From positions 1,198 through 65,197 of the forward strand of contig CALEPR010000036.1 in assembly GCA_937910665.1 (NCBI GenBank): a DNA stretch of 64,000 bases. The letters run 5' to 3'. Within the stretch, counting starts at the first letter, position 1. Every line of letters starts with the position of its first letter. Position numbers and translations under genes: made by a program. The notes beneath the pieces are model-generated. The model worked only from the letters and a program-made list of their open reading frames with translations, ran no database searches and was not told the DNA's origin. This document shows, in pieces, positions 57,837 to 61,865 of the stretch. The stretch comes from an uncultured Selenomonadales bacterium. Lineage in GTDB: Bacteria > Bacillota > Negativicutes > Selenomonadales > Selenomonadaceae.

Positions 57837-57862
57837 GAGGGCGGACTTGAAAGTCCGCCCTT
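57837..57862 (-). terminator. Rho-independent terminator after the glycyl-radical gene
   Basis: On the minus strand AGGGCGGACTT-tca-AAGTCCGCCCT is followed by CTTTGTATTTTGTTT. Confidence 0.7.
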
Positions 57863-57865
57863 GCA

Positions 57866-58105
57866 TCAGAGTGATGAGTGGAATGTTCTTGAGATAACGT
57901 CGTCCTGCTGCTCCTTGGTGAGCTTGACGAAGTTGACTGCGTAGCCCGAAACTCTTACCGTGAGCTGGGGGTACTTCTCGGGGTGAGCCTGAGCGTCGAG
58001 GAGCGTTTCCTTGGTGAAAACGTTTACGTTGAGGTGATGACCGCCCTTTTCGACATACCCGTCGATCAGTTCGATTAGGTTATCTACCTGTTTCTGATTA
58101 TCCAT
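57866..58105 (-). CDS. grcA: Stand-alone glycyl-radical domain protein (GrcA/YfiD-like; C-terminal domain of PFL)
   Basis: 79 aa. [55 protein letters not shown] matches the PFL/GrcA radical domain, including RVSGY. It has its own AGGAGG SD. Confidence 0.9.
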
Positions 58106-58120
58106 AATATAGTTCCTCCT

Positions 58121-58333
58121 TTATTCTTCGTCGCCGAATTCCTCGGTAGGCTGCATACAAGCGCCCTTTGCGCCCGAGCAGTCCGTACTTTTTACGGTCT
58201 GCACGCTTACCTGCGGGGAATTCCCGTTTACCGATATATTAACGTGTCCGCTGCCCTGAGCCATGAGCTTATCTATCAGGTCGGCGAGCTCCTCCGGGTC
58301 GTCCGGAGCTTTAATGATATCCTGCTGCGTCAT
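58121..58333 (-). CDS. Small acidic ORF between the PFL core and the radical domain
   Basis: 70 aa. ATGA overlap with the PFL core stop. The segment [21 protein letters not shown] resembles [20 protein letters not shown] of the next gene. No glycine-radical motif. Confidence 0.55.
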
Positions 58334-60393
58334 TCTTCACCTCTGAGCTTGTCGAGGTCGATATCTCCGACGAAAATGTCAGCGTCCTTGCCGAGCGCGT
58401 TGGGGATTATCGAGAAGGTATTCGAGATACCGTCCTGAGCGTGGCGGAATGGGAGCTTTGCTACGGACGAGAGCGAGGCGACTGCGCCGTGGGTATCTCT
58501 GCCGTGCATGGGGTTAGCTCCGGGAGCGAGCGGAACTCCCTGTTTTCTTCCGTCGGGAGTATTGCCGGTCTTTTTGCCGTAAACCACGTTTGAGGTGATG
58601 GTCAGTATCGACATCGTGGGAACGCCGTCGCGGTAGGTGTGGTGTTTGCGTATGCAGTCCATGAACTTGCGGACTACGGTCACGGCGATATCGTCCACGC
58701 GGTCGTCGTTGTTGCCGTATTTGGGGAAATCTCCCTCAACCTCATAGTCTGTGACGATGCCGTTCTCATCGCGTATCACCTTGACCTTTGCGTACTTTAT
58801 AGCCGAGAGTGAGTCCGCAACGACGGAAAGCCCTGCGATACCGGTCGCGAAATAGCGCTTTACATCGCGGTCGTGGAGCGCCATTTGCAGCTTCTCATAG
58901 CAGTATTTATCGTGCATATAGTGGATAACGTTGAGCGTGTTGACGTAAAGACCTGCGAGCCATTCCATCATTGCCTCGTACTTATCCCATACGTCATCAA
59001 AGTCGAGGTAATCGCCCTCAACGGGACGGAATTTCGGTCCTACCTGAACCTTCATTCTCTCGTCCACACCGCCGTTTATCGCGTAAAGCAGGCACTTGGC
59101 GAGGTTAGCACGCGCGCCGAAGAACTGCATTTCCTTGCCGACCCTCATTGAGGATACACAGCAGGCGATAGCGTAGTCGTCGCCGTGGATAACTCTCATC
59201 ATGTCATCGTTCTCGTACTGTATAGATGAAGTCCTTATCGACATTTTAGCGCAGTATTCCTTGAACTTCCTCGGGAGCTTCTGAGACCAGAGGACGGTCA
59301 TATTCGGTTCGGGAGCCGTGCCGAGGTTTTCGAGCGTATGGAGGTAGCGGAAGCTGTTTTTCGTTACGAGGTGGTGACCGTCAACATCGACTCCGCCGAT
59401 AGACTCTGTTATCCATGTGGGGTCGCCCGAGAAGAGCTCGTTATATTCGGGAGTTCGTGCGAACTTCACGATACGCAGCTTCATGATGAAGTGGTCGATG
59501 AGCTCCTGAGCCTGCTGTTCGGTGATGATGCCCTTTTCGAGGTCGCGCTGGATATAGATATCGAGGAAGGTGGAGGTGCGTCCGAGTGACATAGCCGCTC
59601 CGTTCTGCTCCTTTACAGCGGCGAGGTAGCCGAAATACAGCCACTGAACGGCTTCCTTGGCGGTTGCGGCGGGCTTTGAGATGTCGAAGCCGTAGATACT
59701 TCCGAGCTCTCTGAGCTCCTCAAGGGCGCGGACCTGTTCCGCGAGCTCCTCACGCAGACGGATATTTTTCGAGGTCATTCTGATGAGGGAGGTATCTATC
59801 TGGTGTTTTTTGTCCTCTATGAGCCTGTCCACGCCGTAGAGGGCAACGCGCCTGTAATCGCCGATTATACGTCCTCTGCCGTAGGCGTCGGGGAGTCCGG
59901 TGATGATAGCGGATTTTCTTGCAAGGCGCATTTCGGGGGTATAAGCGTCGAAAACGCCCTGATTATGGGTCTTTCTGTATTTTGTGAATATTTTTACTAT
60001 TTCGGGGTCTACCTCATAGCCGTAATTTTCACACGCCTTCTGAGCCATTCTGATACCGCCGAAGGGCTGAAGCGAACGCTTGAAGGGCTTGTCCGTCTGG
60101 AGCCCGACGATCTGTTCGAGATCTTTATTGAGATAGCCTGCAGGGTGAGAGGTTATGGTCGAGACGATCTTTGTATCCATATCGAGGACACCGCCTGCCT
60201 CGCGCTCCTGACGTGAAAGCTCCATTATCTGATCCCAGAGCTGTTTTGTTGCCTCGGTAGGAGGTTCAAGGAAGCTCTCGTCCCCGTCGTAGGGGGTATA
60301 ATTCTTCTTGATGAAGTCTCTGACGTTTACGGAGGTATTGCTCCAGCGTCCCTCGCGGAAGCCTTCCCACTCATTTGCCCATGTTTTGGTCAT
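58330..60393 (-). CDS. pflB: Pyruvate formate-lyase catalytic core lacking the glycyl-radical domain
   Basis: 687 aa. Active-site [12 protein letters not shown] is present. The sequence is collinear with PFL up to [12 protein letters not shown] and then ends after 15 unrelated residues. Confidence 0.88.
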
Positions 60394-60653
60394 GATCCCA
60401 GCACTCCTTTACAGTTAAAAATAACTTTATATAGTTATTGTTCCCGCGGTCGGCTTCTGGCTTATTGTCTGTATTGCACGGCAGCTCTTCAAGAGCTGAT
60501 CGGGGGAGCAATAAAAATGACCTTACAAATACAATGATACCACATTGTCTAATAATTGTCAATCTCCGTGTTAACTTAAGCTATCAGAAAATATCTGAAA
60601 TTTCAGCGGATAATTTGGTGATTTGTGAGAAGCCGGTGTTGAAAAGTATATGT

Positions 60654-61865
60654 TCACTTCCTTACAGACTTCTTTGAAGAAGCCGGCTTTGACTTTTTGG
60701 GCGGCTTTTTGCCGGAGCTTTTGTTTTCGGGGCGAGATTTTATCCCGAGCTCCTTCTCTTTGCTTTCGAGCTTTTCAAAGCTGAGCTTGTATATCGTCGC
60801 CGCGAGCGGAACGCCAAGAAGCATTCCCAGTATGCCGAAAAGTCCGCCGCCTACCGTTACCGCTGCGAGCACCCATAAGCTCGGAAGCCCCACAGATGAA
60901 CCGACTACCTTCGGGTATATCACATTTCCCTCGAATTGCTGGAGGATTATCAGGAAGATGATGAAGATCACCGCCTGCATCGGGTCCACAGTGAGGATAA
61001 TGAAGGCACTTATCCCCGCGCCTATGAAGGCTCCGACTATGGGGATAAGGGCGGTAATGCCGACAAGAGTCCCCGACATAGCCGCATACGGCAGCCTGAG
61101 CACCTTCATGCCGAGAAAGCAAAGCGTTCCCAGTATTATCGCCTCGATAAACTGCCCTACAAAGAAGCTACGGAAGGTATCGTTTGCTGTGTGGTATATG
61201 TGCCTGAACCTTTTGTTGAAGTCATCGCTGAAATAGGCGTTCATGCCCCTCTTGACATCAGCGCAGAGCTTATCCTTGCGCAGAAGCATATATATCGCAA
61301 AAATTATCCCGAGGACTATGTTCGTAACTGTTACGGTTATACCGCCGATGATGCCGACAGCCGAGCTCAGTATGCCTGCAAGCCCCGTGGTGAGTATGCC
61401 CGTGGCTTTTTCCGCAATGGAAGCCCAGTCGAATTCTATCTCGCTTAAGCTTTTCTGGATATCGGGGTATTCCTGAAGCTTGCCGATGACGAGGTCCCTC
61501 AGCTTTATGAACTGGGGAGGTATTTCATCGTAGAGCACCCCGAAAGCCTCGGCGACCTCGGGTATCACTATATTCAGTATCATTACGATGATAGCCGCTG
61601 TAAGTGCAAATGAAAATACAAGGCATACCGGACGGCGCGTTATCGCGGCAAAGCGCGTATCCGAAGAGGGGAAATAGTGCTTTTCAAAAAAGTTCATCAG
61701 GATATTGAAGATGTATGCGATAACGCAGCCGATGATGAAGGGCTTTACCGCGCTGAGCGCTATGGCAAACAGCTTTGATATCACAGAGAAGTTCTGTACC
61801 GTCACGCATACCGCTACTGCGAGGACGGCGATAAATATATATCGTTTTATCTCTTTTTTGTCCAT
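60654..61865 (-). CDS. AI-2E family transporter (PerM/UPF0118)
   Basis: 403 aa with 8 TM segments and the conserved late motif QQFEGNVIYPKVVGSSVGLP. Lys-rich C-terminal tail. Confidence 0.85.
   Translation of the reverse strand: MDKKEIKRYIFIAVLAVAVCVTVQNFSVISKLFAIALSAVKPFIIGCVIAYIFNILMNFFEKHYFPSSDTRFAAITRRPVCLVFSFALTAAIIVMILNIVIPEVAEAFGVLYDEIPPQFIKLRDLVIGKLQEYPDIQKSLSEIEFDWASIAEKATGILTTGLAGILSSAVGIIGGITVTVTNIVLGIIFAIYMLLRKDKLCADVKRGMNAYFSDDFNKRFRHIYHTANDTFRSFFVGQFIEAIILGTLCFLGMKVLRLPYAAMSGTLVGITALIPIVGAFIGAGISAFIILTVDPMQAVIFIIFLIILQQFEGNVIYPKVVGSSVGLPSLWVLAAVTVGGGLFGILGMLLGVPLAATIYKLSFEKLESKEKELGIKSRPENKSSGKKPPKKSKPASSKKSVRK

Follow-up and report, generated by a model that had tools for sequence, protein, structure and literature searches.

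The minus strand of the 64,000-nt stretch of DNA analysed here (the window) carries a split PFL locus. Judged from the sequence, the interval from a promoter-like site to a strong terminator-like hairpin is one unit of three genes, encoding a 687-aa PFL catalytic core, a 70-aa protein referred to as ORF2, and GrcA3, a 79-aa stand-alone glycyl-radical subunit (Table 1). The core scores 1138.2 bits against TIGR01255 (cut-off 994.2), where it aligns to model positions 1-667 of 744, and it covers profile positions 2-49 of PF01228 and no more. The chain ends 18 residues past ALGK, and the RVSGY loop is missing from it; since this loop is not on the same chain, the protein is a split PFL core. GrcA3 exceeds the cut-off of NF038360 (166.4 bits versus 158) and matches PF01228 model positions 50-106 of 106 and TIGR01255 positions 662-744. 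Together, the core and GrcA3 make up a complete PFL, and ORF2 is therefore an extra component.

Table 1. Features of the split PFL unit, listed in the direction of reading (window positions)
Feature	Position	Strand	Remarks
Promoter-like site, 5' of the PFL core gene	60534..60562	-	TTGACA, 17 nt, TG-TATCAT; 11/12; consensus match only
PFL catalytic core, 687 aa	58330..60393	-	TIGR01255 and PF02901; Cys-Cys active-site motif, without glycyl-radical loop
Acidic C-terminal extension of the core	58333..58386	-	Among the loci examined, only in cores with ORF2 or a fused Cys module
SD-like AGAGGTG, 4 nt 5' of the ORF2 ATG, within the last codons of the core	58338..58344	-	
ORF2, 70 aa, pI 4.1, net charge -9	58121..58333	-	Proposed third subunit
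ORF2 residues 7-37, helix and G-x-G-H-x-N-hydrophobic strand, proposed docking handle	58223..58315	-	Probably paralogous to the first 31 residues of GrcA3
ORF2 residues 49-64, Cys module (S-T-D-C ... G-A-C-x-Q-P-T-E)	58142..58189	-	Most constrained segment
ORF2 acidic tail	58124..58141	-	Sequence variable, D/E-rich composition kept
AGGAGG Shine-Dalgarno (SD) of the GrcA3 gene, directly 3' of the ORF2 stop, 9 nt from the ATG	58115..58120	-	
GrcA3, 79 aa, stand-alone glycyl-radical subunit	57866..58105	-	NF038360, PF01228
RVSGY of GrcA3, residues 51-55	57941-57955	-	Radical Gly54 codon 57944-57946
Intrinsic-terminator-like hairpin, just past the GrcA3 stop	57838..57861	-	10 pairs, 7 G-C, then T-run

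The start codon of ORF2 overlaps the TGA of the core gene (ATGA). As described in the first-pass annotation of this DNA, ORF2 has a Cys-containing acidic tail and no RVSGY, and both the core and ORF2 end in EE. With regard to known families, ORF2 matches none in Pfam at E<=1 (PF01228 included); against NCBIfam, it gives a spurious sub-threshold 13-bit match alone, with the GrcA3, GrcA2 and GrcA models (NF038360, NF008341 and TIGR04365) unmatched at E<=1, and a search of the ESM Atlas returned nothing useful. The activatable Gly of the R-V-S-G-Y loop is absent from ORF2 of the window and from all aligned members of its family, in which a G-A-C-(C/M)-Q-P-T loop occupies the collinear position in place of the radical Gly loop. 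The C-terminal helix of GrcA3 is also missing from ORF2.

Homologues of ORF2 are numerous, and a total of 155 (64-81 aa) were collected. A pattern scan of one genome per species yielded 142 loci, nearly all of them from the Ruminococcus flavefaciens group, and 80 loci were examined closely (76 of 80 fetched, three loci from relatives, and the window itself). According to the first-pass annotation, its interpretation would be refuted if the open frame of ORF2 were not kept in relatives sharing the split. For relatives with the three-gene layout, the interpretation withstands this check: ORF2 is open in 80/80 of these loci, with a length of 65-76 aa where both ends are visible, and in each of them it is flanked by a truncated core and a glycyl-radical gene (79 aa in most). 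Its start falls between 8 nt inside and 3 nt beyond the core stop in 77/78 loci, and an SD-like motif precedes it in 75/78. Overall, about 120 related loci, belonging to Ruminococcus, Lachnospiraceae, Beduini and others, have an open ORF2 at this position.

Codon-level comparison, which the same annotation had suggested as a check, indicates purifying selection on ORF2, with a pairwise dN/dS of about 0.19 versus 0.04 for both the core and GrcA3 (dS being saturated in these comparisons). The constraint is distributed unevenly along the protein: pN/pS is 0.78 in the first 11 residues, 0.22 in the helix-strand segment (residues 13-36), 0.44 in the hairpin, 0.13 in the Cys module, which is the most constrained part, and 0.54 in the acidic tail. 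Family members are strongly acidic, with a median pI of 4.2 and a net charge of -9. Cys59 is invariant, and a second Cys is present in approximately 80% of members, usually 5-7 residues upstream; most Ruminococcus members have three Cys residues, and the window copy has two. The window ORF2 itself matches its own family profile with 95 bits (E 4e-27). Taken together, ORF2 is almost certainly a real gene; a search for protein-level detection of ORF2 or its orthologues found none.

A profile search of 1.84 billion representative proteins recovered 100 clusters, all consisting of small stand-alone proteins, with no full-length PFL among them. Members that are 27-43% identical to the window ORF2 lie in the order core (682-715 aa), ORF2 homologue, radical protein (77-85 aa) and PFL-AE, and their named sources include Lachnoclostridium phytofermentans, Clostridium sp. 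Marseille-P299 and a Lachnospiraceae isolate. Loci found by using GrcA3 as the seed, in Beduini and in a Ruminiclostridium MAG, contain the same middle gene, which scores approximately 70 bits on the ORF2 HMM. ORF2 has thus been retained across at least three orders of Bacillota. The three proteins diverge at very different rates between Ruminococcus and Lachnospiraceae, where split cores are 82-86% and GrcA3 proteins 86-89% identical versus 27-36% (about a third) for ORF2; identity between split cores and full-length PFLs is 58-66%. Within the R. flavefaciens genus, GrcA3 is found above cut-off in 137/161 genomes and ORF2 in 136/161. None of the GrcA3-negative genomes among those listed has an ORF2 match, and one genome with a full-length 760-aa PFL has no ORF2. 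A 111-aa GrcA3-like match (P0271) was considered as a possible fusion and rejected as an assembly duplication.

The taxonomic placement of the window requires caution. Its contig has a GC content of 45.9%, compared with 40.6 +/- 2.0% for the assembly, and is a tetranucleotide outlier. Second copies of murC, mreB-pbp2 and metA are present elsewhere in the assembly, and a search of the assembly for a bona fide PFL-activating enzyme (PFL-AE) found none. In the sampled genus and class of the bin, no other genome showed ORF2, and searches of the assigned genus, family and class turned up no split PFL. Ruminococcus contigs share synteny with the window around an AI-2E transporter gene, an indication that the DNA comes from Ruminococcus. 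From these sequence features, the contig is probably mis-binned, and the lack of ORF2 in the assigned genus, family and class would be explained by this mis-binning rather than by absence from the true relatives. The only other match in the same family (L006) was discarded as a chimeric contig joining ORF2 to a GlmM fragment.

The proposal that ORF2 parallels the start of the next gene is borne out beyond chance by several approaches. Pairwise BLASTP of ORF2 against GrcA3 gives a weak match (8/20 identities, 14/20 positives, E 3e-4), and comparison of narrow family profiles is likewise weak (probability 19%, P 0.0012). With broad family profiles, hhalign aligns ORF2 residues 7-37 with GrcA3 residues 1-31 at a score of 37.4 (probability 93%, P 3e-7), compared with a maximum of 15.6 in 200 column shuffles, 13.6 for the reversed profile, and 12.1 for the final 500 columns of the PFL core, a region with many helix-strand motifs. 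By this profile-profile match, ORF2 contains the helix and beta10 strand pattern (L-x-x-L-I-D-G-Y ... G-G-H-H-L-N-V-N-V) that lies ahead of the loop. In addition, a six-frame scan of 161 Ruminococcus genomes with the ORF2-family HMM produced exactly two matches in most genomes; one of them is ORF2, and among the matches listed the second one per genome is the N-terminus of GrcA3 (approximately 31 bits, E about 1e-7 per genome). A profile search of the PDB with ORF2 retrieved generic helix-strand proteins only, with no PFL or GrcA chain; as this sequence-to-profile search gave no PFL, the case for homology consists of the profile-profile comparison, the genome scans and the adjacency of the two genes. 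On this sequence evidence, the ORF2 handle is very probably homologous to the radical domain, which supports the view of ORF2 as a diverged partial paralogue of the start of that domain (helix and beta10-like strand) without the radical glycine.

Variation in the architecture of split PFLs provides further information about ORF2. Fifty GrcA3-seeded loci were inspected from the order containing Beduini, comprising the best-scoring 30 and 20 lower-scoring ones. The core, ORF2 and GrcA3 are all visible in 26 of the best 30, and one more is cut at the core side with ORF2 and GrcA3 visible; two loci have GrcA3 alone with no core in view, one of them near a contig end. The remaining locus (L187) is a two-gene split in which the core ends in an acidic D-L-D-I-D-L stretch that runs directly into a fused Cys module. 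This module corresponds to ORF2 HMM positions 45-68, without the handle, and the 9-mer GDTACKIPN occurs both here and in another locus (L168), where ORF2 is a separate gene and contains it. The 20 lower-scoring loci include 6 orphan GrcA genes and 14 minimal two-gene splits, whose cores stop 1-4 residues past ALGK and which have no tail, ORF2 or Cys module. Given that these 14 splits do without ORF2, a split PFL does not depend on it, and its part is that of an accessory.

The acidic extension of the core follows the same division. Across the 136 loci with both a split core and a radical gene visible, it is present in 120/122 with ORF2 or a fused Cys module versus 0/14 minimal splits (the genomes being related, these counts are descriptive). 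Together, these architectures suggest that the Cys module is the conserved functional part and that it acts at the C-terminal end of the core, to which it is covalently attached in one lineage. Most simply, the helix-strand segment of ORF2 would be a handle that brings a separately translated Cys module to this end of the core.

Among the closest known systems is that of E. coli, in which PflB and GrcA (YfiD) resemble the arrangement described here in that a stand-alone radical module serves a PFL body with no radical domain or a dead one. E. coli PFL 1-695 is competent once the radical is present, but its binding of YfiD is too weak to detect and it acquires 32-fold less radical (PMC8683613). 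The stub formed by residues 696-733, which consists of the beta10 strand and half of the Gly loop, acts as the recognition element, and free YfiD is a poor activase substrate (PMC8683613). GrcA also rescues the radical-dead PflB G734A in vivo (PMC12338860). YfiD duplicates the beta10 strand, as the handle shared by ORF2 and GrcA3 appears to do here, and without the radical-less stub binding and activation are inefficient; ORF2 is proposed to fill the role of this stub. In such a comparison, the core of the window is the equivalent of the truncated E. coli body, and GrcA3 that of YfiD. In contrast to E. coli, the split described here is constitutive and genetically fixed, its stub-like element is a separate protein with a Cys loop and an acidic tail, and GrcA3 lacks the disordered 60-residue N-terminus of YfiD.

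Small subunits of other glycyl radical enzymes (GREs) offer a second comparison. According to a 2026 review, GRE small subunits are named for HPAD, BSS and MASS only, and spare parts for formate lyases only, where they appear solely as a means of repairing an intact PFL (PMC13450708). The beta and gamma subunits of BSS, the gamma subunit of HPAD, and the beta, gamma and delta subunits of MASS resemble ORF2 in being small Cys proteins that are encoded beside the catalytic subunit and believed to influence the radical domain or the way it is activated or protected. However, they are metalloproteins of a four-Cys HiPIP-like or rubredoxin-like type and have no relationship to the radical domain, whereas ORF2 appears to be derived from that domain and has one invariant Cys, rather than the four Cys (or three Cys and one His) expected of this class. 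The literature search found no paper on a split PFL, on GrcA3 or on an ORF2-type middle gene. The description that suits ORF2 best is that of a lineage-specific third subunit, not described before, in a PFL that is split by nature, and of a variant of both spare-part modules and GRE small subunits.

The reading favoured here, with a probability of roughly 0.6, is that ORF2 is translated and conserved and serves a naturally split PFL as an accessory, third subunit docked onto the core. Among the roles suggested for ORF2 in the first-pass annotation (a docking or chaperone piece, a decoy, or a remnant of duplication), a docking piece fits best, whereas a functionless remnant is rejected by the purifying selection. 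The 687-aa core stops just ahead of the radical domain, the radical glycine is carried by GrcA3, and ORF2 is translationally coupled to the core. In its handle, ORF2 very probably repeats, in degenerate form, the initial ~30 residues of the radical subunit, namely the helix and beta10-like strand whose counterparts enter the barrel in YfiD and E. coli PFL. Such a handle could dock ORF2 onto the core at or beside the site of the radical domain, close to the acidic tail of the core itself, and a core-docking subunit is somewhat favoured. Indirect evidence for an association with the core comes from the translational coupling, the fused form in L187 and the co-occurrence with the core tail. The Cys module would then sit where the fused tail would, near the entry point of GrcA3, and its most likely task there would be to control how the exchangeable radical subunit is loaded, activated by PFL-AE or protected.

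ORF2 would in this way do in trans what residues 696-733 do in E. coli PFL after cleavage by oxygen, where they are the element by which YfiD is recognised. Likened to this radical-less stub with a Cys loop added, it may thus dock on the core and control loading, activation or protection, although a specific role in loading or activation, drawn from the E. coli analogy, is put forward only tentatively. Counted from the strand, the invariant Cys most often lies 27 residues away (range 23-35), versus 28 for the radical Gly; this collinearity is suggestive only.

Structure prediction contributed little to the question of docking. An ESMFold2 complex of the core and GrcA3 with ORF2 as the partner received a score of 0.00, with a partner pLDDT of 33-40, which argues neither for nor against an interaction. 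An AF2 model of ORF2 alone (22-row alignment) reached a pLDDT of 61.6, with a beta-alpha-beta-beta arrangement and a disordered Cys tail; a Foldseek search of the PDB with this low-confidence model gave nothing at E<=0.001 and no PFL match. The natural in-frame core and ORF2 of a relative (L023) were also modelled by AF2 as a read-through product, with TAA as Gly and 61 rows, giving a mean pLDDT of 52.9. The C-terminal region of this core has a pLDDT <30, and the model is therefore unusable for docking. Counting against a docking subunit, the helix-strand segment of GrcA3 may itself fill the beta10 slot, in which case the binding place of the ORF2 copy would be in question. The minimal splits without ORF2, its fast evolution and the lack of a PFL match in sequence-to-profile searches count against it as well.

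Several other explanations have to be weighed against a docking third subunit. The first-pass annotation pointed out that ORF2 and GrcA3 share a reading frame, separated by TAA and five sense codons, such that stop-codon read-through would yield a protein of about 155 aa. In the window these codons are AGG AGG AAC TAT ATT, followed by the ATG, and the fused product would be GrcA-like. The shared frame holds for the window but not as a conserved feature: ORF2 and the radical gene are in frame in 30/80 loci, against a chance level of one third, and their spacing varies from a 20-nt overlap to a 245-nt gap, so the arrangement in the window is a coincidence. GrcA3 also has its own strong AGGAGG SD, and the ORF2 HMM does not resemble the first 60 residues of GrcA from E. 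coli (-2.7 bits), with just the strand GGQHLNVNV matching weakly. Read-through is thus not borne out, and a fusion protein is hardly credible.

Slightly less improbable, but still very hard to sustain, is the idea that ORF2 is a non-functional remnant of duplication or that its translation alone matters, as pure coupling. It would account for the far faster evolution of ORF2 in comparison with its neighbours and for the minimal splits that lack it. However, the invariant residues and the contrast in pN/pS between the Cys module (0.13) and the N-terminal 11 residues (0.78) reveal constraint on the amino acids themselves, the gene persists in three or more Bacillota orders, and the Cys module is kept even when fused to the core. 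A metal- or Fe-S-binding small subunit, comparable to BSS beta/gamma, HPAD gamma or MASS delta, would suit a small Cys protein beside a glycyl radical enzyme, as in the known GRE small subunits (PMC13450708), and the three Cys residues of most Ruminococcus members; yet only one Cys is invariant, the second occurs in ~80% of members and the window copy has two. The four-Cys motif is also missing, and HiPIP or rubredoxin matches are absent from the Pfam, PDB and Foldseek searches, which leaves this explanation improbable.

The most serious rival, though an unlikely one, is that ORF2 acts as a competitive placeholder or decoy whose helix-strand takes the place of GrcA3 in the beta10/radical-domain slot of the core. 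The empty core would thereby stay folded, with its Cys-Cys site protected, up to the arrival of an activatable GrcA3 that displaces ORF2; alternatively, ORF2 would serve as a negative regulator. The handle is a probable paralogue of the exact GrcA3 segment that must enter the barrel, coupling to core translation suggests synthesis at about 1:1, the invariant Cys lies at almost the same distance from the strand as the radical Gly (27 as the mode versus 28), and E. coli GrcA is able to displace the radical-dead domain in PflB G734A (PMC12338860). On the other hand, the strand-to-Cys distance ranges from 23 to 35 across the family, the complex prediction gives no support, and in L187 the Cys module is covalently attached to the core without a handle and must coexist with bound GrcA3. 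A further possibility, which is more doubtful still, is that the invariant Cys lies against the Gly-radical/Cys-Cys site and acts as a radical switch, either by reversible quenching or by gating the hand-over between PFL-AE and the core. The quenching version would amount to a dedicated "deactivase", a safety catch that spares GrcA3 from oxygen cleavage, and if true it would represent a new kind of GRE regulatory subunit built from a radical-dead copy of the radical domain.

The significance of ORF2 as a docking third subunit follows from the importance of the enzyme to which it belongs. Among glycyl radical enzymes, PFL has the widest distribution, and it occupies a central position in anaerobic fermentation. 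In the rumen fibre degraders of the R. flavefaciens group, the main PFL is permanently split, with the same layout in some Lachnospiraceae and in Beduini, an exchangeable radical subunit, and a conserved third protein that is probably derived from the radical domain. Such a locus would provide a natural system for an open question about YfiD, namely how a PFL body without a radical recognises a free radical module and how that module is then loaded onto it and activated, and it may show how oxygen damage is limited.

A particularly useful member of the ORF2 family is present in C. phytofermentans. This organism makes formate, so its split enzyme works, and it is genetically tractable, which makes the proposed role of ORF2 directly testable. 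The orthologue in strain ISDg is Cphy_2822 (ABX43182, 67 aa), in the cluster of P0249/P0263, and it lies between Cphy_2823 (the core) and Cphy_2821 (annotated GrcA), followed by Cphy_2820 (PFL-AE). This Lachnospiraceae branch differs from the window in that its members are only about a third identical to the window ORF2, the gene is separated from the core by a short gap instead of an overlap, and the cluster includes PFL-AE. Cphy_2823 has been entered as pfl (PMC3561251), Cphy_2821 is GrcA by annotation, and Cphy_2820 is the PFL-activating enzyme (PMC9765743). Cphy_2822 itself has an RNA-seq baseMean of 605 and is co-regulated with Cphy_2823 and Cphy_2821 (PMC4230839 supplement), an operon Cphy_2823-2822 has been predicted (PMC5171806 supplement), and its transcript, at percentile 66, has been tabulated as "rnr-pfl superfamily" without comment (PMC4452783 S7). 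Otherwise it is annotated as "hypothetical protein", with no functional study in the C. phytofermentans papers. No RNA run was found that contains the DNA of the window itself. Metatranscriptome contigs from relatives cover the core and GrcA3, and one contig bridges both genes across ~360 diverged letters, which weakly suggests their co-transcription.

In PFL cores (the catalytic body of the enzyme, devoid of the radical loop) that are accompanied by ORF2, the 70-aa middle gene proposed to encode a third subunit, the ALGK motif near the C-terminus is followed by a conserved acidic stretch of the type x-F-x-G-D-L-D-L-D-x-L. In full-length PFLs the collinear segment is I-R-I-K-N-L-T-A-L-L-D, so that the extension amounts to a third, partial version of the junction helix. 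It is also a candidate docking partner for ORF2.

Features at and near the split PFL operon of the window
Feature	Position	Strand	Remarks
Acidic extension of core, after ALGK	58333-58386		conserved; also at core 3' ends in loci L002-L086 and L139-L187
64-aa ORF	58244-58438	+	spans core/ORF2 junction, antisense to it
AI-2E family transporter gene	60654-61865	-	immediately upstream of PFL operon

Several observations bear on the origin of the contig carrying this operon (C36 of assembly G000), which looks mis-binned. Its GC content is 45.9% versus 40.6 +/- 2.0% for the assembly, it ranks 7 among the 90 long contigs by tetranucleotide distance, and murC, mreB-pbp2 and metA are each present a second time elsewhere in the assembly. 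The split PFL is otherwise absent from the genus, family and class of the bin, and Ruminococcus contigs share the gene order of the window contig, with the position of the AI-2E transporter gene conserved in R. flavefaciens-type contigs (L002-L004). No PFL-activating enzyme above the TIGR02493 cut-off was detected in the whole assembly, the top match reaching 70 bits. Four genomes of the R. flavefaciens group (L102-L105) have pflA (about 300 bits) and the PFL triad of core, ORF2 and the glycyl-radical subunit gene GrcA3 on separate contigs; in Lachnospiraceae and Beduini, pflA lies immediately 3' of GrcA3.

Two full triads occur in several Ruminococcus genomes (L045/L053, L032/L054 and L057/L071; G302, G303, G335 and G383), and the three genes therefore appear to duplicate together as one unit. 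GrcA3-type genes with no PFL core in the 1.5 to about 3 kb of upstream sequence retrieved were found at L171, L188, L190, L201 and L204-L206, and likewise at L162, near a contig end. Some genomes holding such orphans also possess the split operon, and the orphans may represent genuine spare copies of the radical subunit.

Other arrangements were also identified. In two-gene minimal splits (L189, L191-L200, L202, L203 and L207), which lack the core tail, ORF2 and any Cys module, the core stops 1-4 residues past ALGK and the radical gene begins immediately, its product scoring 156.8-158.2 bits, right at the GrcA3 cut-off. A conventional full-length PFL of 760 aa, 63-66% identical to the split cores, is encoded at L152 (G407:C160) in one genome assigned to the R. 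flavefaciens genus and lacking ORF2; it could represent a separate PFL lineage, or the contig could be foreign. At L006 (G083:C215), on a short contig that also contains frameshifted core pieces, an ORF2-like sequence is joined in frame to a GlmM-like C-terminal fragment; chimeric assembly is the most likely explanation. The opposite-strand 64-aa ORF of the window shows no sign of being a gene and probably just shadows the coding strand.
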